Virus record (IMG/VR): IMGVR_UViG_2711768052_000009
Reading direction: 5' to 3' (one strand)
From: a virus
Taxonomy: Duplodnaviria > Heunggongvirae > Uroviricota > Caudoviricetes
DNA length: 35,415 bases
The notes below the pieces were generated by a model that saw only the letters and a list, made by a program, of their open reading frames with translations, was not told the origin of the DNA and ran no database searches. Shown here piece after piece: positions 18,955-35,415 of this stretch. The position numbers and the translations under genes are program-made. Within the stretch, counting starts at the first letter, position 1. Each line of letters begins with the position of its first letter.

Positions 18955-18981
18955 AATAATTTTTAGTAAACAATTGGCATA

Positions 18982-19365: not shown

Positions 19366-19450
19366 CAACTTACTCCACAAAAATCAGACCAGAACGCCAA
19401 TTACAAGCAAAAATCAACAAAACAGTATTAGTTGATTGTTATCTCTGACT

Positions 19451-19950: not shown

Positions 19951-20237
19951 GCCTTAATAACCCCCTCTTTCAGCCAGATAACCTGTGTTCTCGCCATACC
20001 TTCCAGCGCGCATTCTTTTGCATATGCAGCATCGACAAAATGTGTGCGGCGGTCGATTTCGTCGTGGCAGGCAGAACATGCAATGGTGGCAATCAGGTCT
20101 GGCGGTTTGATACCGGTACCGCACAATCCAGCCAGCCGGATATGTGCCAGTACAGACGTTTCAGAATTGCCATTACATACGCCAGGGATTCTTACCTGGC
20201 ATTCCCGACCACGCGCTGCTTTTCTCAAATCAGCCAT
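19947..20237 (-). CDS. ybcO: YbcO-like nin-region protein (DUF1364, putative nuclease)
   Basis: 96 aa from ATG 20235-20237 with GGAGGAAT RBS: [42 protein letters not shown]...[13 protein letters not shown]; Cys/His-rich. Confidence 0.85.
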
Positions 20238-20400
20238 GATTCCTCCTTGCTGCCAGTCGCAACCATTTTTTATCAACCAGGCTAGCGGTATATCCGAGCA
20301 GTGTTGGTATTTCGGATGGCTTCAGCTCAGGCTTACGCTTACGACGATTTGATACTCTGTAGATGTGTCCGTTCATGACACGAATAAGCGGTGTAGCCAT
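20230..20400 (-). CDS. ninE: NinE-like small protein (56 aa)
   Basis: Not in the ORF track. ATG at 20398-20400 preceded by GCAGGAGG, overlapping the ybcN stop; translation [56 protein letters not shown]; its stop overlaps the ybcO start. Confidence 0.7.
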   Translation of the reverse strand: MATPLIRVMNGHIYRVSNRRKRKPELKPSEIPTLLGYTASLVDKKWLRLAARRNHG

Positions 20401-20855
20401 TACGCCTCCTGCTTGTCGCGGAGCAGCTGGAACTCGCAGCTCTGCGGAATAGTCAGGTGGCAGCCAATATTCACCGCCCAGGCTTCAACCTTACACAGGA
20501 AGACATACATCTCTCCGGTATCAAGATCGGAGGTATGGCGTAACGACTGGATAGTGGTGATATCACCGGTTACGACATCAACCAGGTCTTTGGTTTCATA
20601 ACCGAGATATGTGTGTTTGAGAGCATCTTTTACCCAAGCTGGAGTGGCGAACGTTTTACCCCTGCTGATGAGGTATTCACTGATTTCGCTGTACCACATG
20701 TGGCTGAGTGCATTCTGGGAAAGACTGCGTTTCTCACGCCACGGTTTAAGCACCATGCGAAAGCATTTGCCCTCCTCCAGATAAGGCTGGATCTGCCGAC
20801 CGATAGCGGTGAAGTTGCCGCGATGTAATTTGATGCCGTCTTGTGAGAGGTTCAC
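20400..20855 (-). CDS. ybcN: YbcN-like (NinB/Orf-family recombination mediator, DNA base-flipping protein)
   Basis: 151 aa, (M)[47 protein letters not shown]...; GTG start at 20853-20855 with GGAGGTGA RBS. Confidence 0.85.
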
Positions 20856-20953
20856 GCTTCACCTCCGCAGAGGTCAAACGCTAGATGCAAAGAATTGCAG
20901 GTGCATTTCTGCATCTGTGAAGGGAGAAGAGAGTTTGGATTGTATGTGCGCAT
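20852..20953 (-). CDS. ylcH: YlcH-like small protein (33 aa)
   Basis: Not in the ORF track. ATG at 20951-20953; translation [33 protein letters not shown]; stop overlaps the ybcN GTG start. Confidence 0.55.
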
Positions 20954-21069
20954 AAACGTCCCCGTTTAGCGCAGAAGTCACCGGAGTTGTTCAGGCTCCG
21001 GTGACATAATTATGCCGTGTTGATTTCCCAAAATCAAAATCGATAGAATTGCTCCTTCTTAAAACACTT

Positions 21070-21867
21070 TTACTCTCTGGAAGCTTTTCTTATCTCTCTT
21101 GGTGTTATATTAAAACGATTATGAAATCTTTCAGTAAAACGAGAAGGACACTTATAACCATTTTCTCTGGCAATCTCGCTTATAGGTTTTACCGTCGTTT
21201 GTATAGCAGACAACGCATTATTTAACCTCACATCGTCCAGTATACTTTGGAAACTTACCCCCTCGCTTGCTAGACGGCGATGTAATGTAGAAACAGAAAT
21301 GTAGAGATATCGAGCAACCTTGTTTGCTGTCCATTTTGTGCCGGGTTCGGATAGCAGCAGGTTATAACAACGACTTATCAATGATTGTTTACTATATGAT
21401 AAAAGTAAATGATTAACATGATTCACTCCTAACGAAAGTAGAACGCCCATTGCTAAGTGCTCCTGAATTTTAGTTGAGAAGCCTCGGGAAACAGATGTTT
21501 TTAGTTGCTCCCAACAATATATTAACTCAGGATTCTGAGGTAAAAATAAACTTGTTTTGTTACGTATTTGATCAGTTACCGTATAAAGTTTTTGGAAACT
21601 CTCAATTAAATCAATGGGTAAGTAAAGCATTTCTGCAAGATAAAGCCCTGCTTCAGGATAATTCTCAATATAAAATTCATAACCACAAGGAAATAATATT
21701 ATTTGATTATTATCAACAGTTAAAGTATGCGTCTCCCAATTGATAACTTTCTTTCCCTGACGGATACGACACAAAGCTGGCATAAGAGGCTTAACCCTAT
21801 GAATCTCATGATGTTTATGCATCCGTATTTCTTCGATCTTTAAGTTAGTCTTACCTCTTGCCAGCAT
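21070..21867 (-). CDS. ybcM: AraC/XylS-family transcriptional regulator (YbcM-like)
   Basis: 265 aa; C-terminal AraC-type HTH ([45 protein letters not shown]...); AT-rich coding sequence. Confidence 0.88.
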
Positions 21868-21876
21868 ACTCTCACC

Positions 21877-22428
21877 CTACTTTATCTCATAAACTGGTGT
21901 TATCTCAGCGGTTGCGATTTTATTAGCATTAAGCATATAACCAACTAACGCTCCGCTGGAGTTAGAATCTACAGGAATCTTTTCAGTTTTTAGAGCCCAT
22001 ACTTTAAACTGGTAATGATGTGGTTTATCTCCTTTAGGAGGACATGCGCCACCAAACCCAGCATAGCCAAAATCATTTCGGCCTTGAACAGCACCAGTCG
22101 GCAGTTTTGTTCCATCACGTCTCCCTGCATCAACGGGCAAATATGTTACTGTTGCTGGAATATTAACAACAGTCCAATGCCACCAACCACTGCCTGTAGG
22201 TGCATCTGGATCATATACAGTTACGGCAAAGCTTTTGGTACCTTCAGGAACACCAGACCAGGTTAATGAGGGCGATGTATTACCACCTTCACACCCAAAT
22301 CCAGAAAAGACATGAGACGTTGTAAGTTGCTCTCCTGTTTTTATTTCATTACTAGTGACCTGAAATGCTGCAGCCTGCGCAGAAAATGTTATGAATGCCA
22401 ATACAGTTGAAACGATAAGTGTTTTCAT
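21877..22428 (-). CDS. ybcL: Periplasmic PEBP/RKIP-family protein (YbcL-like)
   Basis: 183 aa with signal peptide MKTLIVSTVLAFITFSAQAAA; PEBP-like motifs (YDPDAP...GWWHW...PPKGDKPHHYQFKVWAL). Confidence 0.88.
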   Translation of the reverse strand: MKTLIVSTVLAFITFSAQAAAFQVTSNEIKTGEQLTTSHVFSGFGCEGGNTSPSLTWSGVPEGTKSFAVTVYDPDAPTGSGWWHWTVVNIPATVTYLPVDAGRRDGTKLPTGAVQGRNDFGYAGFGGACPPKGDKPHHYQFKVWALKTEKIPVDSNSSGALVGYMLNANKIATAEITPVYEIK

Positions 22429-22892
22429 AAAAACCTCTTTGTTATGACCTATCGTTATTTTATTTGATATTCCTTTATCTCATTATGCATAAAGGCGCAA
22501 TGTTCATGCAAAAGCAATCACAATTGTACCCCCAACCCAATTATTTGCCACAATATACACAAAGCACATTGATACTATCTAAAAACTCTGCTTTATTATT
22601 AGTAATACCTACGAAAGTCGGTGTTATTTTTTAACCTACCATTCAAAATACGTGACATACACCATTTTGCTCATAATAATTTGTCACGTATTTTCAGTAT
22701 TTGAATCTGCGACCAAGAGTTCTCACCTAACAAATGATTAAGATTGTATAGCTCATTTACTACCCCAATACAGCCGTACAAAACTCGCTTGTGGGAGCAA
22801 ACAAAGTAATTACCCATTAAGTTTCGTCAAAGATAATTAATTCTGTCTTGCACTTTATCACCATAGCATAACTTAAAATCCGAGATCATTAT

Positions 22893-24419
22893 TTAGAAAT
22901 AAATCTCACCATCAACCATATATTTGAGAGCACTTATCGCCTGCTGGGCGGATATTACTTTCATTAAAGGATAGTGTTTAAAAACAATGCCATTCATAAA
23001 ATAGATATCACAGGTTTTATTATCCGTATTAATTATGATTTTTTCGAATGTTTTATAGGCAAGTGTACGGCATAACTCTCGTCCATTTTTACTGGTTAAG
23101 TCAATAGCATAAAAATCACTGAATGAATTTACACCTTTACTCTTCAAAGTTTTCAATGATACCGAAGCCCTTCGTAATTCCTTATCTAATAGTCTTATTT
23201 TCTCTGCTATAGCGGTAACTTCAGGCGCGACAGACAATGCAACGATTAAATTATTAATTTTCATCTGAAGCTCAATAATTTTTAACTCTAAAGTTTCATT
23301 AGCATCTTTCTTGTTTTCAACTGGTTGAATTTTGCTACAATTAAAAAGCAATTCATTAATGATATTATAATCAACCAAATCTCTTTTTATTGATGGCCTG
23401 TCACATCGATGTAATCTTCTCATCGGACAAACATAATAGCCATGCAAACTTCCAGATACCGCATGAACAATCATGGTATTACCACAAGCCTCACACTTCA
23501 TAACTGTTCGAAGTAGATTTATTAGCATAGGATTCTTGCTACTATTGCTAATACCAAAAGGTGCCAACCGAATTTCCTGTACAGCGTAAAACAAATCATC
23601 TGATATGACTCTGGGATAATAGCCAGCGATTTCACTTATCCCTTTCCCTCTTGCACGATATGAAGGTACGCATATACCTATCAGAGCTTTATTCGCTAAT
23701 AATTTTTCAATTACAGAAGGTCCCCATGCACTTTCTTTTCCTGAGAAATTCTTTACAGCATGATCATTTAAATACTTGGCTATTGCATTCAATGAGCGCC
23801 TTTCCATCCTGAGTTTAAAAATTAGCTCAATAGTTTTCACCCTGTCGGGGTCTGGAACAAAAGCCGTTCTTTTGTCATCTAAGGAGAGCCATCTCGGACA
23901 AGACGCCGTCATAATCGTACCTGATTCCAGTGCATCCTGCCGTTTTTTCTTCCATGATAATTTAACCCGACTTGACTTTATCTCGCTTTCTTCATTTGCC
24001 CTTTGTGCTATAAGTATGGCTTTTATTAATGAATATGGCTCATTCAAAGAGTCAATATTATAGACTGTATTGTCGCAAAGAGTTATAACATCAATACCGT
24101 GATTCAAAATCAATTTCAGACGTTCAATCGCTTCACCGACTTTTTCTCTTGAAAGTCTGTCCAGACTTTCAACTAACAATGTAGTTCCTGGCAATATATA
24201 ACCATGCTCTATAGCATCTAAAAATTCCGAAAAAGCTCCTGATTGTGCATGCTTTCCTTTGAATGCACTTAATCCTAAATCTTCATATGTTATGGTATCA
24301 AGATAATAATCACTATTTACCTTTAACCATTCAGCAATAAGTCTTCTCTGTCGGTTTAATGAGTCGCCAGACATCTGACCTGGTGATGAAAATCGCATAT
24401 ATGCTATGGCTTTTTTCAT
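22893..24419 (-). CDS. ybcK: Large serine recombinase (resolvase/invertase N-terminal catalytic domain, recombinase domain, zinc ribbon; YbcK-like)
   Basis: 508 aa; N-terminal AIAYMRFSSPGQ with candidate catalytic Ser; Cys cluster CEACGN...CPMRRLHRCD; AT-rich. Confidence 0.85.
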   Translation of the reverse strand: MKKAIAYMRFSSPGQMSGDSLNRQRRLIAEWLKVNSDYYLDTITYEDLGLSAFKGKHAQSGAFSEFLDAIEHGYILPGTTLLVESLDRLSREKVGEAIERLKLILNHGIDVITLCDNTVYNIDSLNEPYSLIKAILIAQRANEESEIKSSRVKLSWKKKRQDALESGTIMTASCPRWLSLDDKRTAFVPDPDRVKTIELIFKLRMERRSLNAIAKYLNDHAVKNFSGKESAWGPSVIEKLLANKALIGICVPSYRARGKGISEIAGYYPRVISDDLFYAVQEIRLAPFGISNSSKNPMLINLLRTVMKCEACGNTMIVHAVSGSLHGYYVCPMRRLHRCDRPSIKRDLVDYNIINELLFNCSKIQPVENKKDANETLELKIIELQMKINNLIVALSVAPEVTAIAEKIRLLDKELRRASVSLKTLKSKGVNSFSDFYAIDLTSKNGRELCRTLAYKTFEKIIINTDNKTCDIYFMNGIVFKHYPLMKVISAQQAISALKYMVDGEIYF

Positions 24420-24599
24420 GGTGACACCTGCTAACGTATGCTTTTATAAACCTTAGTGGTGGGATATAATTTTTGTTTAATTTTTATTTAAAAAGACAAT
24501 TAAGGTCACATTATCTTGAATATACAACAATAATCGTATTGCAATTTTCTTACGCCATAATCTTGAAAGCACAAAAGAATACATAAAAAATAAAGACAT

Positions 24600-24643
24600 T
24601 AACAAAAAGCATAAAACGAGGCTCATATAAATATAAGAGCCTC
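24600..24643 (-). terminator. Rho-independent terminator downstream of emrE
   Basis: GAGGCTC...GAGCCTC 7-bp inverted repeat (24618-24643) followed on the minus strand by GTTTTATGCTTTTTGTT. Confidence 0.55.
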
Positions 24644-24673
24644 CATATTTTAGTCGTTTAGAAACAAATTATT

Positions 24674-25006
24674 TTAATGTGGTGTGCTTCGTGACAATAA
24701 ATTAATAACCAACACACCGGCACAAATCAACATCATGCCTATAATGGCTGGCAGGTCCAGCCGTTGGCCGAAAAATCCCCATGACAGTAAGCTAATCAGG
24801 ACAATACCGACTCCTGACCAGATAGCATAAGCAATCCCTGTAGGAATATAAGCCAGCGTCTGAGCTAATAACCAGAATGATGCACAATAACAAATAATTG
24901 TACCAACAGATGGCCATAACCGTGTAAAACCTTCTGAAAACTTCATTAAGGTTGTACCAATGACCTCTGCAAGTATTGCACCACCAAGATAAATATAAGG
25001 GTTCAT
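24674..25006 (-). CDS. emrE: SMR-family multidrug efflux transporter EmrE
   Basis: 110 aa from ATG 25004-25006: MNPYIYLGGAILAEVIGTTLMKFSEGFTRLWPSVGTIICYCASFWLLAQTLAYIPTGIAYAIWSGVGIVLISLLSWGFFGQRLDLPAIIGMMLICAGVLVINLLSRSTPH; four TM helices with the conserved Glu in TM1. Confidence 0.92.
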   Translation of the reverse strand: MNPYIYLGGAILAEVIGTTLMKFSEGFTRLWPSVGTIICYCASFWLLAQTLAYIPTGIAYAIWSGVGIVLISLLSWGFFGQRLDLPAIIGMMLICAGVLVINLLSRSTPH

Positions 25007-25073
25007 AGCATATTCTTTCCTGTTCAAACTGGAGAGAATTGTACTACAGTTTGAACTCAACTCACCTGTTTCA

Positions 25074-25376
25074 TCATTGTGTTCCCATTGATGTTCTTTT
25101 ATATACCCTCAGTACCCGTTTCATCGCGGCACTCTGGCGACACTCCTTAAAAATCAGATTCGTGCTCACCTTTCCTTCCCGTTCTTCTCTGGTAGCGAAC
25201 CGGTAATACACCGTTCGCCAGACCTTACCATCAACGACCAGGATTCCTGCCCGCGCCATTTTAGCCGCAGCCTGATTTATGCTGGTTACGGTTGCGCCTG
25301 TTACCGCGGCAACGTCCTGTGCACAGAAGCTCTTATGCGTCCCCAGGTAATGAATAATTGCCTCTTTGCCCGTCAT
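25074..25376 (-). CDS. ren: Ren protein (confers resistance to Rex exclusion in lambda)
   Basis: 100 aa, MTGKEAIIHYLGTHKSFCAQDVAAVTGATVTSINQAAAKMARAGILVVDGKVWRTVYYRFATREEREGK...; matches lambda Ren; start overlaps the P stop. Confidence 0.88.
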   Translation of the reverse strand: MTGKEAIIHYLGTHKSFCAQDVAAVTGATVTSINQAAAKMARAGILVVDGKVWRTVYYRFATREEREGKVSTNLIFKECRQSAAMKRVLRVYKRTSMGTQ

Positions 25377-26074
25377 ACACTTGCTCCTTTCAGTCCGAAC
25401 TTAGCTTTGATTTCTGCGATCTTCGCCAGAGCCTGTGCACGATTTAGAGGTCTACCGCCCATGACAGGAAGTTGTTTTACTGGTTCAGGTATCGCCTCAC
25501 CACGGTTAATTCGCGCGGTCATACAGGACAGTTCATCGGCAGCCTTGCGCCGTAATTCCGCGTCAGTCAACGCATTGGCCCGCATGTTCTGATACAGGTT
25601 GGTAACCAGCCAGTAGTGCGCGTTTGATTTCCACGGATAAGACTCTGCATCCGGATACAGACCACGCTTCCGGCAATACTCGTAAACCATATCAACCAGC
25701 TCGCTGACGTTTGGCAGCCCGGCGGTAACGGATGCTTCTTCCCGGCACCATGCAACAAACTGCCCGGGTGATGGCAGAAATGGTCTATTCTGCCGACGGG
25801 CAACACGCATTCCGGCGCTCACCTGTTCCATCGTGGTGATCCCGTTTTCCCGGAAAGCCAGAACCCACTGGCGGCGGATTTCGTTCAGTTCGTTCTGGTC
25901 ACGATTAGCCAGGCTCGCCGGGAAAGTTGCCAGTAACTGGCTGAATACACCGTTGATTATCTGCGCTACCTGCTGTACCTGCGGCTTTTCGTCGTACTGT
26001 TCCGGCATGTTGTTGGCGATCCGACGCATCTGCTCACGGTCAAAGTTAATCATCTGTGCGGCGATGTTTTTCAT
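25373..26074 (-). CDS. P: Replication protein P (DnaB helicase loader)
   Basis: 233 aa, MKNIAAQMINFDREQMRRIANNMPEQYDEKPQVQQVAQIINGVFSQ...; matches lambda gpP. Confidence 0.93.
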   Translation of the reverse strand: MKNIAAQMINFDREQMRRIANNMPEQYDEKPQVQQVAQIINGVFSQLLATFPASLANRDQNELNEIRRQWVLAFRENGITTMEQVSAGMRVARRQNRPFLPSPGQFVAWCREEASVTAGLPNVSELVDMVYEYCRKRGLYPDAESYPWKSNAHYWLVTNLYQNMRANALTDAELRRKAADELSCMTARINRGEAIPEPVKQLPVMGGRPLNRAQALAKIAEIKAKFGLKGASV

Positions 26075-27000
26075 AGATCCACCCCGTAAATCCAGTCTGT
26101 GTTTGTCAGGTCGAGTTTTGGTTTGCTAGCTGTCACGCCTGCCTGTTGCTTGTTACGGTTGATTTCGAGTTGAGTCCACTTGTCGCGGAGTTTGGCCGGA
26201 CTTAGCACGTTACCGGACCAGAAGTTGTCCTGGCATGCCCAGCGGAAAAGCACGCACATGTCGCGGTGGTTACGTCCGTCACGTTCACGCATCAGGCGGA
26301 TATCGTTAGCCCACCCTGCAAAATTCGGTTTTCTGGCTGATGGTGCGATGGTCTTCACCATGTCAAACATCCACTCTGCGGCGGTCAGGTCTTCTGCTGT
26401 CCCCCACTTGCTGCCGCTCTGAATTGCAGCATCTGGTTTCACCACAGGAAGATCGTTTTCTGGTTGGTCAGAGGATTCGCCAGAATTCTCGGACGAAAAA
26501 GGTTTTATATTGTCTTTTGTTAGTTTGTCTTTTGTGTTTACCTGATTCGGGTAAACGCCTTTACCTGATTTGGGTAAACTTTTCTTACCTGATTCAGGTA
26601 AATTTACCTCTTTCAGGTAAACTTTATTTTTCTTACCTGATTCGGGTAATGTTGACCATTCACTGACCACATTATTAATACCGATATTCCGCCCGCTCTG
26701 AATCAAAATCCCACGCTTTACCAGAACACTTTTTGCAGCAGAACACTTGTGCGGTAATATCCCGGTCAATCCGGACAGTTGCTCGTTGCTCACCCAATCC
26801 AGTTTTTTATTAAAGCCATATGTTTTGCGCATGACAGCCAGGAAGACCAGAAGCTGGTGCTGTGTTAATCCGGCCAGCATCACAGCTTCCAGCAACTCAT
26901 TTGCAATGCGCGTATAACCATCATCGAGATCTGCCACGCGCGGCTCCTTTTGTGCCGCATCCGGCACTGGAAAATTGAATATCTCAGCAGTGTTTGCCAT
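26071..27000 (-). CDS. O: Replication initiator O (origin-binding)
   Basis: 309 aa from ATG 26998-27000 with GGGAGGA RBS: MANTAEIFNFPVPDAAQKEPRVADLDDGYTRIANELLEA...; N-terminal domain lambda-O-like; the iteron region is translated as repetitive LPESGKK linker; C-terminus with the P-interaction region. The track ORF extends 30 codons upstream. Confidence 0.88.
   Translation of the reverse strand: MANTAEIFNFPVPDAAQKEPRVADLDDGYTRIANELLEAVMLAGLTQHQLLVFLAVMRKTYGFNKKLDWVSNEQLSGLTGILPHKCSAAKSVLVKRGILIQSGRNIGINNVVSEWSTLPESGKKNKVYLKEVNLPESGKKSLPKSGKGVYPNQVNTKDKLTKDNIKPFSSENSGESSDQPENDLPVVKPDAAIQSGSKWGTAEDLTAAEWMFDMVKTIAPSARKPNFAGWANDIRLMRERDGRNHRDMCVLFRWACQDNFWSGNVLSPAKLRDKWTQLEINRNKQQAGVTASKPKLDLTNTDWIYGVDL
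26538..26650. repeat. ori: five tandem ~19-bp iterons (O-binding sites) inside the O gene
   Basis: tttacctgattcgggtaaa (26538-26556), tttacctgatttgggtaaa (26560-26578), cttacctgattcaggtaaa (26584-26602), tttacctctttcaggtaaa (26603-26621), cttacctgattcgggtaat (26632-26650); each internally palindromic (TACC...GGTA); adjacent AT-rich stretch at about 26480-26537. Confidence 0.85.
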
Positions 27001-27086
27001 AATTCCTCCCGCAATGAGTGTGTTACGATTTGCACCTGAAAGTCGGTTCTGTTCCCGCAGACCGACTTTCGCCATTTTTGAACCTG

Positions 27087-27632
27087 TCATATTGCCCCCA
27101 GCATGGTGGTGACCATCGCCATCAATGGACCAGCCAGATCCGGGTCCACTCGAAACATCGACACAATGCCTTCACTCATCTCCTTCAGTTTCTGGTGGCG
27201 TGGTGCGTTGAGAATGACCGCCTGCTTTGCCTCACAGAGTTCCTTTTCCATTTCAGCCAGCCGAGCCATGAAGCTATCCTGCTCAACCAGGTGGCCGCGA
27301 TATTCCAGCGGTAGTACCGCCAGAATTGCCGGGGTCAGTTCACGCACGTTATTTCGGTATTTTTCAGAATCGAATTTGTTATCGAGGAAGCGGAACAGCT
27401 TCTGGCGTGCACGGCTGACATCATCAGGGAAATCGATGGTGCCGCCGCCCTGCTCCCGATACTCATTCACAATGAGTGCGGCAACAACATCCTGATTATC
27501 TGCAGCCGACCAGGCGCGAACGGCATCACGGATTTTTTCGTGGCCTGGCACCTGTTTTATTTGAGAACGATTTATCACCGCAGTCGGGCTAAATCCGCTA
27601 GTCTGTTGGTATGTAAGTGGTTGCATAATCAT
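27087..27632 (-). CDS. YdaT-like protein (DUF1019) in the cII position
   Basis: 181 aa, MIMQPLTYQQTSGF...; segment NEYREQGGGTIDFP...LTPAILAVLPLEYRGHLVEQDSF resembles the Rac prophage YdaT core as remembered; not lambda CII-like. Confidence 0.65.
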   Translation of the reverse strand: MIMQPLTYQQTSGFSPTAVINRSQIKQVPGHEKIRDAVRAWSAADNQDVVAALIVNEYREQGGGTIDFPDDVSRARQKLFRFLDNKFDSEKYRNNVRELTPAILAVLPLEYRGHLVEQDSFMARLAEMEKELCEAKQAVILNAPRHQKLKEMSEGIVSMFRVDPDLAGPLMAMVTTMLGAI

Positions 27633-27656
27633 TGCCTTATCAGTTAACGCCGCAGT

Positions 27657-27884
27657 TTAGGCGGCAGAATTACTCGCGTTAAACAATGGTGCAAGGTCGG
27701 GACGAATATCTGCTGGTTTAATCTTTCCACCAGTGGCTGAGACAATTTTCATTACATAGCGGGCATCAATTCCGCCACCGTGTAGCCAACGCCAAACAGT
27801 GGGCTGGGCTACACCGCATAGATCTGCCAGTCGTTTTTGACTACCTGTAATACTGATTGCGAGTTGAATGGTTTGATTTGTCAT
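27657..27884 (-). CDS. cro: Cro-like HTH repressor (YdaS/Cro family)
   Basis: 75 aa from ATG 27882-27884: MTNQTIQLAISITGSQKRLADLCGVAQPTVWRWLHGGGIDARYVMKIVSATGGKIKPADIRPDL; HTH at QKRLADLCGVAQPTVWRW; divergent from cI across the operator region. The track start is TTG two codons upstream. Confidence 0.75.
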   Translation of the reverse strand: MTNQTIQLAISITGSQKRLADLCGVAQPTVWRWLHGGGIDARYVMKIVSATGGKIKPADIRPDLAPLFNASNSAA

Positions 27885-27994
27885 TATCAATTCCTATTGG
27901 TATTACAATGAATGGATAATAGCAATGCGTATTAACCCAATCAATAGCAAAACGTGTTTTGACCATCAATACGCAAGCGTATAAATTAAAACTT
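27885..27994. promoter_or_regulatory. Immunity control region: divergent PR (to cro) and PRM (to cI) with candidate OR operator repeats
   Basis: Minus strand: -35 TTGATT (27939-27944) / 17 bp / -10 TATTAT (27916-27921) for cro. Plus strand: -35 TTGACC (27959-27964) / 15-16 bp / TATAAAT (27980-27986) ending 8 nt before the cI ATG. Motif AATAGCAA at 27918-27925 and 27943-27950 (25-bp spacing). Confidence 0.6.
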
Positions 27995-28687
27995 ATGAAA
28001 AAAGAAACTCTTGCTGATCGCTTAAACCTAGCGATGGAACAATCTGGAATGTCTCAAGGCGCTCTTGCAAAGGCGTCTGGCGTAGCTCAACCCACAATCT
28101 GGAGACTGACAAGCGGCAACGCACGCGGCTCAACAAAAATTGTTGAAATAGCTAATGCATTGGGTGTTCGAACAGAGTGGCTCTCATCAGGCATAGGCCC
28201 GATGAGAAATGACGGTCAACAATCAGGGAAGCCTGCTGCCAACCATCCCAAATACTTCAAGATTGACGTTCTTGATATAGAAGTGAGTGCCGGGCCGGGA
28301 GTCATCAACCGTGAGTTTGTAGAAGTTCTACGCTCGGTTGAGTACTCGTTTGACGATGCTCGTCACATGTTCGATGGCAGGAAGGCGGAAAATATCCGTA
28401 TCATTAACGTACGCGGTGACAGCATGTCAGGAACGATCGAACCAGGTGATCTGCTGTTCGTTGATATCACGGTTAAATCTTTCGACGGTGATGGTATCTA
28501 TGCGTTTCTGTACGACGACACAGCCCATGTAAAGCGCCTGCAAATGATGAAGGATAAACTGCTGGTTATCTCTGATAACAAGAGCTACTCACCGTGGGAC
28601 CCAATCGAGAAAGACGAGATGAACCGGGTATTCATCTTCGGGAAAGTCATCGGGAGCATGCCGCAGACGTATAGGAAGCATGGATAA
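27995..28687 (+). CDS. cI: CI-type prophage repressor (N-terminal XRE HTH plus C-terminal S24 LexA-like autopeptidase)
   Basis: 230 aa from ATG 27995: MKKETLADRLNLAMEQSGMSQGALAKASGVAQPTIWRL...; Ala-Gly cleavage-site candidate in VSAGPG; S24 motifs GDSMSGTIEPGDLLFVD and HVKRL (Ser/Lys dyad). The track ORF starts at an upstream TTG. Confidence 0.85.
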   Translation: MKKETLADRLNLAMEQSGMSQGALAKASGVAQPTIWRLTSGNARGSTKIVEIANALGVRTEWLSSGIGPMRNDGQQSGKPAANHPKYFKIDVLDIEVSAGPGVINREFVEVLRSVEYSFDDARHMFDGRKAENIRIINVRGDSMSGTIEPGDLLFVDITVKSFDGDGIYAFLYDDTAHVKRLQMMKDKLLVISDNKSYSPWDPIEKDEMNRVFIFGKVIGSMPQTYRKHG

Positions 28688-28782
28688 TTCGACATAAATT
28701 CAACAAGTTAACTTTGGCTTCAAAAAAGCATCGATAACATTGCATTATATTTTTCCTTTTGTCTAACTTAAAAGGATGAACA

Positions 28783-29508
28783 ATGGAAGAACGTGGGAAT
28801 TACCTAATAGAACCCCTAGAAGTAATTGGTTCTGGCGGTTTTGGCCTTGTAGAAAAAATAAGGTTATATAACTCACAAAGAAAAATTTGTGGTCTATATG
28901 CCAGAAAAATTTTACGACCTGATGCAACAGATCCTGAACTCTTTACCAGATTTGAACGAGAAGTAAGATATCAAACTGAATGCCTGCATACTAATATTGT
29001 CCAAATATTCATATGCCACTTACAGAATGCTCAGCCTTGGTTCGTAATGGAACTAGCAGAAACAAATCTTGAAGAAGAAATAAAAAGTGGAACTCTTACA
29101 AAGGCTGAAAAAATCTCTATTGTAAAAATGGTACTAAATGCCGTCGGATGGATTCATAAGAAAGGATATCTTCATCGGGATATAAAACCACTAAATGTAC
29201 TAAAATTTAAAGATGGAATTTATAAGTTATCTGACTTCGGCCTTGCAAAAAATGTGTCACCAGATGCCAATACACAGCTATTAACACAAATTGGCCAATA
29301 CCCCGCTACTCCTAAATACTTTGATTACAACGTTTTCCTCAACGGATATTCAAAACAATCAGATATATATTCAATTGGTATTTTAATTGAAGAATTAAAT
29401 ATTGATGGTTTTGATGATATAATAAACAAATGTACGCATAGACAACTTAACAAAAGATTCCTGACCGTAGAGCAGATCTTTGAGGAATTGGAGTTGAAAC
29501 GCTTATGA
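28783..29508 (+). CDS. Hanks-type (eukaryotic-like) Ser/Thr protein kinase, minimal catalytic domain only (241 aa)
   Basis: ATG 28783 with AGGA RBS; Gly loop IGSGGFGLV (res 15-23); beta3 Lys in YARK (res 40-43); catalytic loop HRDIKPLN (res 131-138, nt 29173-29196); DFG in LSDFGLAK (res 150-152); APE-like ATPKY; DIYSIG (subdomain IX). No TM or sensor domains. AT-rich. Confidence 0.85.
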   Translation: MEERGNYLIEPLEVIGSGGFGLVEKIRLYNSQRKICGLYARKILRPDATDPELFTRFEREVRYQTECLHTNIVQIFICHLQNAQPWFVMELAETNLEEEIKSGTLTKAEKISIVKMVLNAVGWIHKKGYLHRDIKPLNVLKFKDGIYKLSDFGLAKNVSPDANTQLLTQIGQYPATPKYFDYNVFLNGYSKQSDIYSIGILIEELNIDGFDDIINKCTHRQLNKRFLTVEQIFEELELKRL

Positions 29509-30248
29509 TTAGCATACTCTCATCATCCATATTTTCTGTACCAAAACATAATGGCAGGGAAAATCAAGATAGCGTGCTTTATCCACTTCAAACACCAAAT
29601 GGTTATCTTATGGCTATAGCTGATGGGGTTGGTGGTTATAAAGGAGGAAAAGAAGCATCTGCAGCAGTAATAAATCATTTGTATAGTATTAAAGACAGCT
29701 TCACTCATGAAGACAATGTCTTATCCTTACTTAAGACCCTACAAGAAAAGGTGGCATCTCTTTCGTCAGTTGATAAAGAATTAGCATCTGCTGCTACAAC
29801 TTTAACAATGTGCCTACTTCACAATCAAGGTCTAACAATTATACATGTAGGTGACTGTCGTGTTTATTTAAAAAATGGAAATAAGCTAATCCAATTAACA
29901 ACAGATCATACTCAACATCAAATGTTGATAGATAGCGGTATTTATACAGCTCGACAGCTCAAAAATGCAAAAGGTAAAAATATTATTACAACTGCACTTG
30001 CTGCCAAGATCCCCCTTCAACATCAAGTCATAAATATTGATAAAGATGAACTTCCTCTTGACGATGGTGTTCTATCTCTATTCATCATGTCTGATGGCGC
30101 GCATACCTTTTGGGAGCAACGCCCACGATTTTCTTACCGTACATTGTCAACCGCATCAAGGTTTGCCTCCAGCCTAATGCGAAGAATAGAGACAAAAGGC
30201 CCGACTGACGATTATTCTCTTATAGCGGTAAATGTAAAGTATTTGTAA
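29505..30248 (+). CDS. PP2C/PPM-family Ser/Thr protein phosphatase (247 aa)
   Basis: ATG 29505 overlapping the kinase stop (ATGA); PPM motifs IADGVGGYKGG, HVGDCRVY (GDSR-type), TTDHT, FIMSDGA; compact bacterial PP2C size. Confidence 0.8.
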   Translation: MISILSSSIFSVPKHNGRENQDSVLYPLQTPNGYLMAIADGVGGYKGGKEASAAVINHLYSIKDSFTHEDNVLSLLKTLQEKVASLSSVDKELASAATTLTMCLLHNQGLTIIHVGDCRVYLKNGNKLIQLTTDHTQHQMLIDSGIYTARQLKNAKGKNIITTALAAKIPLQHQVINIDKDELPLDDGVLSLFIMSDGAHTFWEQRPRFSYRTLSTASRFASSLMRRIETKGPTDDYSLIAVNVKYL

Positions 30249-30253
30249 ACTTC

Positions 30254-30280
30254 CCGGCCACCGTGCCGGGTTTTCTTTTA
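30254..30280 (+). terminator. Rho-independent terminator ending the cI-kinase-phosphatase transcript (tImm-like)
   Basis: CCCGGCcaccgtGCCGGG hairpin followed by TTTTCTTTT, 6 nt after the phosphatase stop. Confidence 0.8.
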
Positions 30281-30404
30281 TCCCCTCCCCTCATCACATA
30301 TACCGTTCAAAAAACCACCACAATCTCCCTTCAGTTATCGCTATGCGATGCAAGTCACAAAATTAATTCTTTTTGCTATCAAACAGTTAATATCAAAACA
30401 CATC

Positions 30405-30455
30405 AATCAATAGCAATAAGTATTGATACCGCCAATAGCAATAGCTATTATTACC
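30405..30455 (+). promoter_or_regulatory. Candidate PL promoter with OL operator repeats
   Basis: -35 TTGATA (30423-30428) / 17-bp spacer / -10 TATTAT (30446-30451), oriented toward the downstream ORF and gam-bet-exo; CAATAGCAA at 30408-30416 and 30433-30441 (25-bp spacing), the same motif and spacing as at OR. Confidence 0.6.
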
Positions 30456-30644
30456 ATGTCGCAACAACACAACGATACGGCAACCGCCTGATTCACCGTT
30501 GCGATGACCGCTTAGATCCGCAGCTTGAATTTCGGCAGGCTCCGGGGAGTGCGAGGGGTGAAACGGACGCGTGAACGTCGGTGTGACCAGCTGAAATCAA
30601 CTCAACACCTCATACCTCAGTCGCTTCAACGAGGCGGCTTAGTT

Positions 30645-30935
30645 ATGACAACCGGCGGCCATCCACCGCCTGAATACGCGCAGAAGTCTCTATATGTTCA
30701 GCAGCCCAGCTTACGGGCAGGAGTTTTTATGGTTCATCAACATTATGGAACGCAGACCGTTAATCGAGGTGCGGTCATGCCAGGAATGCTGGTCAAACAC
30801 AAAGATGGTACCTGGACTGCATCAGCTAATTTACGCGGACGGCTTTATCTGCATCGCGGCATCGAGCGCACTTATACCCGTGATTTGCTCGTGGAAGTTT
30901 TTCTCGACGGACGCGGTAACGGCCTGAATCACTAA
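30645..30935 (+). CDS. Hypothetical protein, first gene of the PL operon (occupies the N/kil position); possible upstream GTG start at 30558
   Basis: ATG at 30645 gives 96 aa ([48 protein letters not shown]...); the frame is open upstream, and GTG 30558 (GGGGAG SD 8 nt upstream) would add an Arg-rich segment VKRTRERRCDQLKS. No family recognised. Confidence 0.5.
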
Positions 30936-31010
30936 TCCCCTTTCCTGTTTTCCTAATCAGCCTGGCATTTCGCGGGCGATATTTTCACAGCCATTTTCAG
31001 GAGGTCAGCC

Positions 31011-31307
31011 ATGAACGCTTATTACATTCAGGATCGTCTTGAGGCTCAGAGCTGGGCGCGTCACTACCAGCAGATCGCCCGTGAAGAGAAAGAGGCAGAA
31101 CTGGCAGACGACATGGAAAAAGGCCTGCCCCAGCACCTGTTTGAATCGCTATGCATCGATCATTTGCAACGCCACGGGGCCAGCAAAAAAGCCATTACCC
31201 GTGCGTTTGATGACGATGTTGAGTTTCAGGAGCGCATGGCAGAACACATCCAGTACATGGTTGAAACCATTGCTCACCACCAGGTTGATATTGATTCAGA
31301 GGTATAA
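31011..31307 (+). CDS. gam: Gam, short form (RecBCD inhibitor GamS)
   Basis: 98 aa, [56 protein letters not shown]...; matches the lambda Gam C-terminal 98 aa; AGGAGG RBS upstream; an in-frame stop at 30954 precludes a long form. Confidence 0.9.
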
Positions 31308-31312
31308 AACGG

Positions 31313-32098
31313 ATGAGTACAGCACTCGCAACGCTGGCAGGGAAGCTGGCTGAACGTGTCGGCATGGATTCTGTCGACCCACAGGAACTGATCACCACTC
31401 TTCGCCAGACGGCATTTAAAGGTGATGCCAGCGATGCGCAGTTCATCGCATTACTGATCGTTGCCAACCAGTACGGCCTTAATCCATGGACGAAAGAAAT
31501 TTACGCCTTTCCTGATAAGCAGAATGGCATCGTTCCGGTGGTGGGCGTTGATGGCTGGTCCCGCATCATCAATGAAAACCAGCAGTTTGATGGCATGGAC
31601 TTTGAGCAGGACAACGAATCCTGTACATGCCGGATTTACCGCAAGGACCGCAATCATCCGATCTGCGTTACCGAGTGGATGGATGAATGCCGCCGCGAAC
31701 CATTCAAAACCCGCGAAGGCAGAGAAATTACGGGGCCGTGGCAGTCGCATCCCAAACGGATGTTACGGCATAAAGCCATGATTCAGTGTGCCCGTCTGGC
31801 CTTCGGATTTGCTGGTATCTATGACAAGGATGAAGCCGAGCGCATTGTCGAAAATACCGCATACACTGCAGAACGTCAGCCGGAACGCGACATCACTCCG
31901 GTTAACGATGAAACCATGCAGGAGATTAACACTCTGCTGATTGCCCTGGATAAAACATGGGATGACGACTTATTGCCGCTCTGTTCCCAGATATTTCGCC
32001 GCGACATTCGCGCATCGTCAGAACTGACACAGGCCGAAGCAGTGAAAGCTCTTGGATTCCTGAAACAGAAAGCCTCTGAGCAGAAGGTGGCTGCATGA
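31313..32098 (+). CDS. bet: Bet (Red-beta single-strand annealing protein)
   Basis: 261 aa, [66 protein letters not shown]...; matches lambda Bet. Confidence 0.94.
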
Positions 32099-32775
32099 CA
32101 CCGGACATTATCCTGCAGCGTACCGGGATCGACGTGAGAGCTGTCGAACAGGGAGATGATGCGTGGAACAAATTACGACTCGGCGTCATCACGGCTTCAG
32201 AAGTTCACAATGTGATAGCAAAACCCCGCTCCGGAAAAAAGTGGCCTGACATGAAAATGTCCTACTTTCACACCCTGCTGGCTGAGATTTGCACCGGTGT
32301 GGCTCCGGAAGTTAACGCTAAGGCGCTGGCCTGGGGAAAACAGTACGAGAATGACGCCAGAGCCCTGTTTGAGTTTACTTCCGGCGTGAATGTTACTGAA
32401 TCCCCGATCATCTATCGCGACGAAAGTATGCGCACCGCCTGCTCTCCCGATGGTTTATGCAGTGACGGCAACGGCCTTGAACTGAAATGCCCGTTTACCT
32501 CCCGGGATTTCATGAAATTCCGGCTCGGTGGTTTCGAGGCAATAAAATCGGCTTACATGGCCCAGGTGCAGTACAGCATGTGGGTGACGCGAAAAGATGC
32601 CTGGTACTTTGCCAACTATGACCCGCGTATGAAGCGTGAAGGCCTGCATTATGTCGTGATTGAGCGGAATGAAAAGTATATAGCGAGTTTTGACGAGATG
32701 GTGCCGGAGTTCATCGAAAAAATGGACGAGGCACTGGCTGAAATTGGTTTTGTATTTGGGGAGCAATGGCGATGA
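32095..32775 (+). CDS. exo: Exo (lambda 5'-3' exonuclease, Red-alpha)
   Basis: 226 aa, [54 protein letters not shown]...; matches lambda Exo; ATGA overlap with bet. Confidence 0.94.
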
Positions 32776-32954
32776 AACATCCTCACGATAATATCCGCGT
32801 AGGCACGATCACTTTCGTCTACTCCGTTACGAAGCGAGGCTGGGTATTTCCCGGCCTTTCTGTTATCCGAAATCCCCTGAAAGCACAGCGGCTGGCTGAG
32901 GAGATAAATAATAAACGGGGAGCTGTATGCACAAAGCATCTCCCGTTGAGTTAA
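32766..32954 (+). CDS. Lambda orf60a-like small protein
   Basis: 62 aa, [62 protein letters not shown]; recalled as a lambda b-region ORF adjacent to exo. Confidence 0.7.
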
Positions 32955-33118
32955 GAACGAGTATCGAGATGGCACATAGCCTCGCTCAAATTGGAGTCAG
33001 GTTTGTGCCAATACCAGTAGAAACAGACGAAGAATTTCATACGTTAGCCGCATCCCTTTCACAAAAGCTGGAAATGATGGTGGCGAAAGCAGAAGCAGAT
33101 GAGAGAGACCAGGTATGA
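32927..33118 (+). CDS. Lambda orf63-like small protein
   Basis: 63 aa, [63 protein letters not shown]. Confidence 0.7.
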   Translation: MHKASPVELRTSIEMAHSLAQIGVRFVPIPVETDEEFHTLAASLSQKLEMMVAKAEADERDQV

Positions 33119-33198
33119 CAACCACGGAATGCATTTTTCTGGCAGCGGGCTTCATATTCTGTGTGCTTATGCTTGCCGACATGGGACTTGTTCAATGA
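33115..33198 (+). CDS. Candidate small hydrophobic peptide (27 aa), translationally coupled
   Basis: Not in the ORF track. ATG 33115 overlaps the orf63 stop (ATGA) and its stop overlaps the next ATG (33195); translation MTTTECIFLAAGFIFCVLMLADMGLVQ, one predicted TM helix. Confidence 0.4.
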   Translation: MTTTECIFLAAGFIFCVLMLADMGLVQ

Positions 33199-33410
33199 CA
33201 CCTCAGCAGGAAAACGCCCTTCGCAGCATTGCCCGTCAGGCTAATTCTGAAATCAAAAAAGCCAGACAGCAGTTTCCGGATAAAAACGTCGATGACATTT
33301 GCCGTAGCGTACTGAAGAAGCACCGCGAAACGGTAACGCTGATGGGATTCACACCGACTCATTTAAGCCTGGCGATCGGCATGTTAAACGGCGTCTTTAA
33401 GGAACGGTGA
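33195..33410 (+). CDS. Lambda orf61-like small protein
   Basis: 71 aa from ATG 33195: MTPQQENALRSIARQANSEIKKARQQFPDKNVDDICRSVLKKHRETVTLMGFTPTHLSLAIGMLNGVFKER. Confidence 0.65.
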   Translation: MTPQQENALRSIARQANSEIKKARQQFPDKNVDDICRSVLKKHRETVTLMGFTPTHLSLAIGMLNGVFKER

Positions 33411-33431
33411 ACATGAAAAGCAAAATCATCA

Positions 33432-33455
33432 GGGAGCTACAGGCTCCTTTTTTAT
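33432..33455 (+). terminator. Rho-independent terminator
   Basis: GGAGCtacagGCTCC hairpin (33433-33447) followed by TTTTTTATTG. Confidence 0.65.
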
Positions 33456-33508
33456 TGTTCGCATTCATCCTCAAGCGTATTAACCAACAATTCAGGGATT
33501 AATGGAAG

Positions 33509-33727
33509 ATGGCAGACATCATTGATTCGGCATCAGAAATCGAAGAATTACAGCGCAATACAGCAATAAAAATGCGTCGTCTGAACTACCAGACTGTATC
33601 CGCAACTCATTGTTGTGAGTGTGGCGATCCGATAGATGAGCGAAGACGCCTGGCTGTTCAGGGTTGTCGGACTTGTGCAAGTTGCCAGGAGGAGATCGAA
33701 CTTAAGAACAAACAATGGGGACTGTGA
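33509..33727 (+). CDS. TraR/DksA-family C4 zinc-finger protein
   Basis: 72 aa, MADIIDSASEIEELQRNTAIKMRRLNYQTVSATHCCECGDPIDERRRLAVQGCRTCASCQEEIE; CxxC...CxxC pairs; acidic N-terminal region. Confidence 0.75.
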   Translation: MADIIDSASEIEELQRNTAIKMRRLNYQTVSATHCCECGDPIDERRRLAVQGCRTCASCQEEIELKNKQWGL

Positions 33728-33774
33728 TGGCCTCAAAGCAGCAAATTTCAACATCGCCCAACTGAGGTGTAAAA

Positions 33775-34053
33775 ATGTTCAGAATCATTTTTCCTAACAC
33801 CTGGTACGTCGACCACCACGGCACTCCCTGCAAAATCCTGCGTTCTACCCACAACAAAGTTCACTACATCCGAAAAGGCAGAACATGTATCGCCAGCATG
33901 TTCCGCTTTAATCATGACTTTGAACCTGTGAATAAAGCTGATGCAGATCGGATAGCAGAAGAGATCGAAACGGCAGAACACATTAAGAAGTTACGTGACA
34001 TGCGTTCAAAAAGCAGAGGTAACCATGGAATCATACAGCCTCACACTCGATGA
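33775..34053 (+). CDS. Hypothetical protein
   Basis: 92 aa, ATG 33775 with GAGGTG RBS: MFRIIFPNTWYVDHHGTPCKILRSTHNKVHYIRKGRTCIASMFRFNHDFEPVNKADADRIAEEIE...; no family recognised. Confidence 0.5.
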   Translation: MFRIIFPNTWYVDHHGTPCKILRSTHNKVHYIRKGRTCIASMFRFNHDFEPVNKADADRIAEEIETAEHIKKLRDMRSKSRGNHGIIQPHTR

Positions 34054-34396
34054 GGCCTGTCAGTTTCTTAAGATATCCAGACCAACCGCCACCAACTGGA
34101 TACGAACAGGCCGCCTACAGGCAACACGTAAAGATCCAACCAAGCCAAAATCTCCTTACCTCACAACACGGCAAGCCTGCATTGCGGCGCTTCAGTCTCC
34201 GCTGCATACTGTCCAGGTGAGCGCGGGTGATGGCATAACAGAGGAAAGAAAATGTCACTCTTCCGCAGAAATGAAATATGGTATGCCTCGTATTCGCTCC
34301 CGGGCGGGAAACGAATTAAGGAATCTCTTGGCACAAAGGACAAGCGGCAAGCTCAGGAGTTGCACGACAAGCGAAAAGCAGAACTCTGGCGAGTAG
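34025..34396 (+). CDS. xis: Excisionase candidate (AlpA/Xis-type HTH)
   Basis: From ATG 34025: [37 protein letters not shown]...; HTH typical of excisionase/AlpA family; position immediately upstream of and overlapping int. The long C-terminal extent overlapping int by about 145 nt is doubtful. Confidence 0.55.
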
Positions 34397-35415
34397 AAAA
34401 GCTAGGGGATTTACCTGATGTCACTTTTGAAGAGGCCTGCCTAAGATGGCTTGAGGAAAAAGCTGATAAAAAATCTCTCGATTCAGATAAAAGCCGGATT
34501 GAGTTCTGGCTTGAACATTTTGAGGGTATAAGGCTTAAAGATATCTCGGAGGCAAAGATTTACTCTGCTGTAAGCAGAATGCATAACAGAAAGACGAAAG
34601 AAATATGGAAACAGAAAGTTCAGGCCGCCATCAGGAAAGGTAAAGAACCGCCTGTTTATGAACCAAAGCCAGTATCAACTCAGACAAAGGCAAAGCATCT
34701 TGCCATGATAAAGGCCATTCTCCGTGCTGCAGAACGCGACTGGAAGTGGCTGGAAAAAGCGCCTGTCATCAAGATACCAGCGGTCAGAAACAAGCGAGTC
34801 AGATGGCTGGAAAAGGAGGAAGCAAAACGCCTTATTGATGAGTGCCCCGAACCACTGAAATCTGTCGTCAAGTTTGCGCTGGCAACTGGTCTGAGAAAGT
34901 CGAACATCATAAATCTGGAATGGCAACAAATCGACATGCAGCGACGAGTTGCCTGGGTGAATCCAGAAGAGAGCAAATCAAACCGCGCCATTGGTGTGGC
35001 GCTGAACGATACCGCCTGTAAAGTGTTGCGTGATCAAATAGGCAAGCATCACAAATGGGTGTTTGTACATACCAAGGCGGCTAAGCGAGCAGATGGAACA
35101 TCAACGCCTGCGGTCAGGAAGATGCGCATCGACAGCAAGACATCATGGCTATCAGCTTGTCGTCGTGCAGGAATTGAAGATTTCCGTTTCCATGACCTCA
35201 GACACACCTGGGCAAGCTGGCTGATTCAGTCAGGCGTCCCATTATCAGTGCTTCAGGAAATGGGCGGATGGGAGTCCATAGAAATGGTTCGTAGGTATGC
35301 TCACCTTGCGCCTAATCATTTGACAGAGCATGCGAGGAAAATAGACGACATTTTTGGTGATAATGTCCCAAATATGTCCCACTCTGGAATTATGGAGGAT
35401 ATAAAGAAGGCGTAA
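34252..35415 (+). CDS. int: Tyrosine site-specific integrase (DLP12 IntD-like)
   Basis: 387 aa, [50 protein letters not shown]...; catalytic motifs HDLRHT and VRRYAHL (Tyr); GAGGA RBS; stop TAA at the window end. Confidence 0.92.

Follow-up and report, generated by a model that had tools for sequence, protein, structure and literature searches.

What decides between lysis and lysogeny in a lambdoid phage whose replication and recombination genes are akin to those of lambda but whose cro gene is followed by something other than a lambda-type cII? This question is raised by IMG/VR record IMGVR_UViG_2711768052_000009, a 35,415-nucleotide (nt) stretch of Caudoviricetes DNA (hereafter, the window) that represents a lambdoid phage or prophage, seemingly a complete phage, with its rightward early operon on the minus strand. 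An earlier note, made from the letters of the window without database searches, had proposed that its cro-like gene is followed by a gene resembling ydaT of the Rac prophage, the product of which was presumed to be the lysis–lysogeny decision protein. We conclude with good confidence that the pair encodes Cro and CII, the regulators of a lysis–lysogeny switch like that of lambda in its phi80 form, a reading that best explains the evidence set out below.

Profile searches place the product of the gene after cro (cII; 27087–27626, minus strand; 179 amino acids (aa)) in the YdaT family, bearing out the resemblance that the earlier note had seen: the protein matches Pfam YdaT_toxin PF06254 (formerly DUF1019) over profile positions 1–90 of 92 (E = 2.6e-29; 101.9 bits, cutoff 21) and PHROG 163, 'CII-like transcriptional activator' (7e-66), while no NCBIfam model matched it. 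In a protein search, 120/120 homologues among the matches listed carried PF06254, and the 697 homologues found across Enterobacteriaceae (E ≤ 1e-3) identify cro and cII as real genes, not chance open reading frames (ORFs). The gene upstream (27657–27884, minus strand; 75 aa, ATG at 27884), identified from the ORF list, Pfam and PHROG, encodes a Cro-like helix-turn-helix (HTH) protein of the YdaS/Cro type. Its assignment to this family, also part of the earlier note, is supported by matches to Pfam YdaS_toxin PF15943 (E = 9.6e-15; 54.6 bits, cutoff 30) and to PHROG 35, 'transcriptional repressor' (9.4e-24); weak Pfam matches to P22_Cro and HTH_3 and 34% identity to phi80 gp30 over 44 aa were also found.

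The fold points the same way. An AlphaFold2 model of the CII monomer (predicted local distance difference test score 79) gave 8bt1 and 3c4r as its top fold matches, the first being YdaT of the cryptic CP-933P prophage (PDB 8BT1) and the second a structure from a related prophage (PDB 3C4R), and the model has the layout of the YdaT family, with a long helix after an all-alpha HTH domain of POU-like form. In the model this helix spans residues 119–138, and the corresponding helix tetramerises in solved relatives. The recognition-helix motif SRARQKLFRFLD, near-invariant in the subfamily, is similar to ARNTQKIFRWLD in the studied YdaT proteins. Relative to the 141-aa YdaT proteins of Rac and CP-933P, the modelled protein has about 25 additional disordered residues at its N terminus. 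About 40 more at its C terminus form two predicted helices (143–160 and 162–178) with a hydrophobic tail, PLMAMVTTMLGAI, and have no counterpart in either relative; by analogy with the C-terminal tag of lambda CII, this tail might be a protease degron, although the phage has no cIII gene. No Phage_CII profile matched the protein and no CII structure appeared among its fold matches, so it resembles lambda CII in neither sequence nor fold. Lambda-type CII sites (TTGC-N6-TTGC) were found 0 times in the whole window against 2.7 expected by chance.

Counted from its first ATG (27632), the ORF after cro covers 27087–27632 on the minus strand and has 181 codons, the length that the earlier note had reported. 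All 24 of 24 aligned homologues begin at the second ATG, 27626 (MQPL aligned with MQSL/MHSL), for which an AAGG Shine–Dalgarno sequence is also better spaced than for 27632. For both reasons the real product, as judged from these alignments, is the 179-aa protein, and the cro–cII spacer (27627–27656, minus strand), which follows the cro stop codon at 27657–27659, is 30 bp long. The 24-bp spacer described earlier is true for the first ATG only; to the conserved start, the distance is 30 bp, as in phi80 (30 bp) and close to that in HK639 (29 bp).

The protein belongs, more narrowly, to the phi80-type CII subfamily, with full-length similarity and the layout cro, a spacer of about 30 bp, cII, an antisense M3/oop-type RNA and an O-like gene. 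With tblastn against deposited phages, it showed 95–98% identity to the annotated cII of 4A7, 4C10, D2, 1W, 3W, Perceval and the PhiR series, 66.1% to phi80 cII (over residues 1–179), 66% to mEp237 cII and 52% to the cII of HK639 and HK225. The gene order of phi80 (pR, a cro of 73–75 aa, a 30-bp spacer, a cII of 179–180 aa, the antisense 'M3 RNA, homolog of lambda oop' and an O-like gene; in phi80 gene names, gene 30/cro, cII, M3 RNA and gene 15) recurs here, and the HK639 record has it too, with a 29-bp gap. The window phage differs from phi80 in its Cro and cI, and so in immunity, in lacking the N gene and nutL that phi80 has and in replication genes with a lambda-type P and O C terminus. 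The cro–cII module is known and annotated, the DNA being already labelled cI/cII/cro in phages D2, 1W, 3W, 4A7, Perceval and PhiR70_1.

The view that YdaT-family proteins are CII equivalents is likewise already established. For YdaS and YdaT as Cro and CII equivalents, Casjens 2003 is cited in Jobling 2018 (PMC5917428). Jurenas et al. (2021) described CP-933P YdaT as homologous to phi80 CII and found that its expression turns on PRE933P, a promoter of the pRE type that otherwise stays silent (PMC8630535); Prolic-Kalinsek et al. (2023) solved the CP-933P YdaT tetramer and footprinted TTGATT-N6-AATCAA between ydaS and ydaT (PMC9986795); and Wons et al. (2025) reported that Rac YdaT raises the reverse promoter for racR 29-fold via its box (PMC11879457). 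An HTH and a tetramerising helix occur in both lambda CII and YdaT (PMC11879457). DNA binding, tetramerisation and activation of a reverse promoter are taken from this literature on relatives, to which the window protein is connected by homology, fold, gene layout and site conservation. The Pfam family, the predicted fold, a position directly after a YdaS/Cro-type gene and divergent from a CI-type repressor, and perfect TTGATT-N6-AATCAA copies are what the window shares with CP-933P and Rac; unlike it, these are defective prophages, and their YdaT proteins lack the N-terminal residues that here encode the box described next. For the phi80 type, a role of cII in establishing lysogeny is taken, by analogy, from the gene name in phi80 records. 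The 66% identity to phi80 cII and the published experiments with Rac and CP-933P YdaT agree with the earlier suggestion that the YdaT-like product would be the decision protein.

In the mechanism that we propose, where we infer which promoter is used, what Boxes B and C do and how lysogenisation is affected, the pR transcript (minus strand) would encode the YdaS-type Cro and, 30 bp on, the YdaT-family CII, which by homology would bind TTGAT(W)-N6-(W)ATCAA inverted repeats and turn on leftward transcription of cI, leading to lysogeny. Its main site would be Box A (27561–27578), in the 5′ coding region of cII itself and centred at −41.5 of a pRE-like transcript that would run from near 27611 antisense across cro into cI. 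Two further palindromes, Boxes B and C, are candidate secondary targets of CII, at which its effect would most likely be repression or a roadblock. The place in the operon, an oop-type antisense RNA after the gene and a predicted leftward promoter in the 5′ part of the activator gene, antisense through cro into cI, are all as in lambda, so that the logic of pRE would have been reached by an unrelated protein acting on an inverted rather than a direct repeat. The window phage further differs from lambda in having no cIII, N or nutR/tR1.

Box A is an imperfect YdaT-type palindrome (minus strand GTGATAAATCGTTCTCAA, core TGAT-N8-CTCA), the 18-bp box beginning at +49 of cII and its core at +50. We surveyed 68 homologous loci from GTDB genomes, 61 of them unique, for the core TGAT-N8-ATCA with at most one mismatch. 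It occurred at the identical position in 57/61 unique loci and 3 nt away in 2 more, against a background of 0.57 per kb; exact matches numbered 39 in 506 kb, with 20 lying within about 10 nt of the Box A position and 17 exactly on it. phi80 has the box at the same codon position. The palindrome persists although the peptide that it encodes changes (MINRAQ, LISQNQ, MIYQNR, VIYRNQ, LINQNQ, VISNYQ, LIKLNQ), and it sits in a segment of CII predicted to be disordered. Codon choice is biased at the core, where Ile18 is ATA in 44, ATT in 9 and ATC in 0 cases, compared with ATC in 35 and ATT in 11 at Ile32, and where Ala21 is GCT in 20/20 cases whereas Ala35 takes all four codons; in the spacer, which is unconstrained, the third positions of codons 19 and 20 vary. 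Enterobacter phage ENT1 (locus L080, 3431–3997) encodes a highly diverged YdaT-type CII, missed by tblastn, that keeps the N terminus MHSLAYQQ together with a perfect Box A (TTGATTTCGATTTATCAA) at the same codon position, which suggests stronger conservation of the DNA element than of the protein.

On the opposite strand, 20 nt from Box A, lies a TAnnnT hexamer in which T1, A2 and T6 are invariant in 64/64 unique sequences, while codons 8–10, which overlap it, encode differing residues. In the window it reads TAGTCT (27599–27604, plus strand) and is the predicted −10 element of the leftward pRE-like promoter. Taken as such, it would put the start near 27611 and the centre of Box A at −41.5, the classical position of a class II activator. 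No terminator is predicted along the antisense path from near 27611 through cro into cI. At the cro/cII junction, where the YdaT box of Rac and CP-933P lies, no match was found at up to 3 mismatches.

Box B (21020–21037) lies at a promoter in the nin region. A strict scan of the window for TTGATT-N6-AATCAA returned this one perfect match and a single-mismatch match at 27873–27890, and the degenerate pattern TTGATW-N6-WATCAA gave 2 perfect matches compared with 0 in 100 dinucleotide-preserving shuffles. On the minus strand, Box B supplies both the −35 (TTGATT) and the spacer of a promoter that reads rightward ahead of ninB/ybcN, and it is followed by a −10 CATAAT (21009–21014), a perfect 10-bp-stem hairpin, GTCACCGGAG-N9-CTCCGGTGAC (20977–21005), and the ybcN/ninB leader, the promoter module after the box spanning 20977–21014. 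In the record of phage 82 (X92588), the same three elements are annotated, the hairpin as a 'possible regulator-binding site'. As an observation apart, we considered a leftward promoter at Box B (TTGATT-18-TAGAAT) and rejected it as a conserved feature, the sequence upstream of the box being unrelated in other phages.

The module, with the conserved hairpin GTCAYCGGAG-N9-CTCCGGTGAC, recurs in HK639 (42241–42300), where the box is perfect (TTGATTTTCTGGAATCAA) and DNA identity across the module is 82%, in phi80 (38718–38810), where the box is TTGATAAAACACTATCAA with half-sites TTGATA/TATCAA and the same order of box, promoter and hairpin stands upstream of ybcN, in GTDB loci L003, L006, L016 and L027, and in HK225, CobraSix, KO-TP1, ENT1, mEp237 and IMG/VR contigs. 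Among the GTDB loci there were 4 perfect Box B copies and 1 with a single mismatch, with about 0.13 perfect copies expected in 540 kb. In every carrier, homology begins exactly at the box, marking a mosaic junction, and the half-sites are kept while the N6 varies; every carrier with enough flanking sequence, including ENT1, has a YdaT-type cII. Heteroimmune phages and prophages that retain the box come from Escherichia, Enterobacter, Klebsiella, Citrobacter and Lelliottia. In a further 19 Klebsiella phage records, homology is confined to the ninB-proximal part and the box module is missing, and 0/19 are among the YdaT-positive records; in one of them, which combines a lambda-type CII with a homologous ninB leader, no box was found within 2 mismatches in 18 kb. 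Lambda has no detectable Box B. A pattern scan of IMG/VR for the box module returned 6 loci, too few for statistics.

The centre of Box B is at about −26.5 of the nin promoter; binding there would therefore most simply repress the promoter or block read-through toward Q, and by analogy we infer an effect resembling in function that of the CII-dependent paQ of lambda. It is possible, although we put this forward tentatively, that phi80-type (YdaT-family) CII has a small conserved regulon of two operators, the intragenic Box A (−41.5, class II-like) and Box B at ninB…Q, and that in N-less phages CII gates Q directly at the DNA level. If so, Box B would be a protein–operator substitute for the CII-dependent paQ antisense RNA of lambda. 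Our literature search, which left most of the older phi80 literature outside its reach, found no paper tying YdaT or phi80 CII to the ninB/ybcN promoter. The re-identification of a known alternative CII family, although correct, matters little in itself; the predicted intragenic pRE-like site and the conserved nin-promoter operator may be the sole new parts. The comparison could be useful in offering promoter and operator coordinates for a very common, little-studied lysogeny switch, and the intragenic box with its invariant −10-like hexamer, together with the box at the nin promoter, hints at a coupling of CII to late genes in N-less lambdoid phages.

Box C (27873–27890; minus strand TTGATA-ATGACA-AATCAA) is a perfect TTGATW-N6-WATCAA palindrome over the start codon and ribosome-binding site of cro, at about +20 to +37 of the pR transcript. 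Its function is uncertain on this sequence evidence; Rac YdaT, too, binds around the ydaS start (PMC11879457). A box of the pI type near int/xis was sought, and only 3-mismatch matches at chance level were found. Covariation between box and recognition helix is uninformative, since every subfamily has an identical core half-site. Sites matching the YdaT box are present in cis and conserved and the recognition-helix motif is kept; binding and activation by CII are predictions.

Several points weigh against this interpretation of the pair and its sites. Identity of CII to the biochemically studied YdaT proteins is only about 25–28%. Box A is imperfect in the window, departing from the strict CP-933P consensus at 4 positions and from the core at 1, and the predicted −10 TAGTCT is weak. 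Rac and CP-933P have their main box not at +49 but at the junction of ydaS and ydaT or across the ydaT ATG, and the activated Rac promoter is about 190 bp from its box, which leaves the class II geometry at −41.5 as our deduction. Conservation of Box A is partly confounded by coding constraint and by the shared ancestry of the loci, and those in which TAnnnT was counted had been pre-selected for at most one core mismatch. A heteroimmune relative has only a half-site at Box C, which is not clearly conserved, and the association of Box B with YdaT-type cII could stem from the linkage of neighbouring mosaic modules instead of from function.

The alternative that survives best is that the YdaT-like protein, while binding DNA as a regulator, is no equivalent of CII and acts mainly as a repressor, for instance at the nin promoter or pR by way of the boxes at 21020 and 27873, or on host genes, with cI established in some other way. 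Two perfect boxes do lie where binding would repress, one in the −35 and spacer of a promoter and the other downstream of pR, the intragenic Box A is imperfect here, published titles label YdaT a 'repressor' equivalent, and Rac YdaT lowers racR expression via intergenic sites and regulates host rcsA (PMC11879457). Yet the two homologues that have been studied each turn on a reverse promoter driving the repressor gene (PMC8630535, PMC11879457), no other non-coding signal of the family is as conserved as Box A with the invariant TAnnnT at its fixed distance, and the phi80 orthologue bears the genetic name cII. We therefore regard a role as mere repressor as unlikely and retain the assignment of the protein as CII.

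Far less probable is that the genes form a YdaS/YdaT toxin–antitoxin module rather than a pair of phage-switch regulators, as their database names would have it: Pfam calls the families 'Bacterial toxin YdaS' and 'Bacterial toxin ydaT', and the RefSeq product name for cII homologues is 'toxin YdaT domain-containing protein'. Over-expression of Rac YdaT is toxic (PMC11879457), but the toxin–antitoxin prediction was computational and is unconfirmed (PMC5917428, PMC9986795), and CP-933P YdaT showed no toxicity (PMC8630535). The modelled fold is that of an HTH DNA-binding domain with an oligomerisation helix, the two genes sit where cro and cII would be expected, between the operators and O of a complete lambdoid genome, the phi80 orthologue is named cII and PADLOC gave no hit for the pair. 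On fold, genomic context and literature we reject the toxin–antitoxin explanation; the Pfam 'toxin' names for YdaS and YdaT are a historical artefact. Part of the 909-bp cro–cII segment is present at ≥95% identity in 2,216 of 5,426 complete Escherichia coli genomes, the match covering ≥80% of its length in 717 of these, so the module is ordinary and very widespread (about 40% of complete E. coli genomes), and for a module this common the labels 'toxin YdaT' and 'toxin YdaS' in Pfam and RefSeq mislead.

Weakest of all is the notion that cII functionally belongs to the replication module as an accessory to O, for even though the same cII allele occurs with differing cro and cI, always beside an O-like gene, and the ORFs of cII and O, each counted from its first ATG, have 4 bp in common, the likely O start at Met31 leaves an 86-bp gap that holds an oop/M3-like RNA, the cII family is joined to unrelated replication genes in HK639, phi80 and ENT1, no replication-protein domains were found in the cII product, and fold and literature point to a transcription factor.

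The downstream boundary of cII, as Cro's partner in the switch, is occupied by that oop/M3-like antisense small RNA (26975–27082, plus strand). Its promoter, TTGAAT-17-CATAAT (26975–27003), aligns with phi80 M3, HK639 M3-like and lambda po, and its hairpin (27038–27070, repeat I5), a 10-bp perfect stem with a fold z-score of −3.78, is followed by a T run. Lambda oop overlaps cII, whereas the RNA here stops just short of the cII stop codon. Replication gene O (Pfam Phage_rep_O; 26071–27000, minus strand) likely starts at Met31 (ATG 27000), the residue at which its PHROG 277 alignment also begins; its C-terminal part is lambda-like and its N-terminal, iteron-bearing part is not. The non-lambda part contains, at 26520–26650, four to five CCTGATTCGGGTAAAC-like direct repeats, each about 20 bp long. 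Since lambda homology begins right after the repeats, at 26537, they are presumably origin iterons with a specificity unlike that of lambda.

The wider mosaic agrees with the lambda-like flanks that the earlier note had described. In blastn against lambda, 25101–26537 (ren, P and the C-terminal part of O) is 94.6% identical and 30929–33704 (gam, bet, exo and onward) 96.8% identical, with no match between these blocks; O (Phage_rep_O), P (Phage_lambda_P) and ren follow downstream of cII. The proposal of an immunity-module swap by recombination holds in so far as a non-lambda block separates the two flanks, but the block (26538–30928) is larger than the immunity core, comprising the N-terminal/iteron part of O, the M3-like RNA, cII, cro, the operators, cI, a Ser/Thr kinase and a PP2C phosphatase gene, a terminator, pL, a leader of about 185 nt and kil. 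Nor is cII immunity-specific, judging by sequence comparison: the same cII (96–98% protein identity) occurs with a different cro and cI in PhiR47_2, PhiR34_1, PhiR5_1, PhiR26_1 and IdasGreatGrand, and homology of the heteroimmune relatives breaks a few bases upstream of the cII start.

Upstream of cro, three operator-like 18-mers at 25-bp spacing (OR1–3; 27918–27985) are related to repeats at pL, where operator-like motifs AATAGCAA…TATT occur again at about 30410–30450. Promoter prediction gave a pR candidate, TTGATT-17-TATTAT with a TG (27916–27944, minus strand), and a divergent pRM candidate, TTGACC-17-TAAATT (27959–27987, plus strand), whose start at or beside the cI ATG (27995) would give a leaderless or near-leaderless cI mRNA. 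The cI repressor itself (27995–28687, plus strand) has an HTH and an S24 peptidase domain (Pfam Peptidase_S24 1.3e-18, HTH_3; PHROG 4 8e-69). The terminator at 30253–30280 closes the cI operon. A pL candidate, TTGATA-17-TATTAT (30423–30451, plus strand), is followed by the leader of about 185 nt and by kil of the phi80/HK639 type (30645–30935, plus strand; PHROG 294 Kil).

Between pL and kil no N gene was found, Kil being the only profile match there, and the interval 30250–31010 contains no N gene, cIII or nut sites. An Arg-rich stretch in frame upstream of kil (30525–30644) was considered as N and set aside; it has only a TTG start and no profile match, and we take it as leader. The inference drawn earlier from the short spacer, that a lambda-style nutR and tR1 are absent, is sound, in that the spacer is too small and lacks a boxA, and a stronger reason for it is the absence of an N gene and, from both early operons, of a boxA; the window has one boxA match, CGCTCTTA, which is in the porin gene and at chance level. 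HK639, an N-less lambdoid phage with a putL-like antiterminator RNA, resembles the window phage in its cII (52%), 29-bp spacer, M3-like RNA and lack of an N gene, but its putL-like RNA has no detectable counterpart in the window: a search of the pL leader for a put RNA of the HK022/HK639 type gave no blastn similarity to HK639 putL and a fold z-score of −0.54, so the leader has no unusual degree of structure. Across 18000–35415, Rfam returned no significant family, the only match at E ≤ 1 being a below-threshold miRNA hit inside cI. In the heteroimmune PhiR47_2 (locus L082), which has the same cII, the cro–cII spacer is 69 bp long and contains the boxA-like consensus CGCTCTTTAACA, and some heteroimmune relatives may thus keep a nutR-like element.

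The remaining genes of interest are cargo. Directly after cI, in the slot of lambda rexAB, a Ser/Thr kinase gene (Pfam Pkinase 2.5e-32; PADLOC PD-T4-6, Stk2, mad6-like) overlaps a PP2C phosphatase gene (28783–30248, plus strand); relatives have GevT/GevA or other genes there, and the pair is likely prophage-expressed defence cargo. The nin region (17651–25060) is DLP12-like and cargo-rich, with an emrE-type small multidrug resistance transporter (24674–25060), the large serine recombinase YbcK (22893–24419), the phosphatidylethanolamine-binding protein YbcL (21877–22428), the AraC-type YbcM (21070–21867), ybcN, ybcO, rusA and Q (18982–19380). The NmpC-like porin gene (17651–18793) is on the strand opposite to the nin genes.

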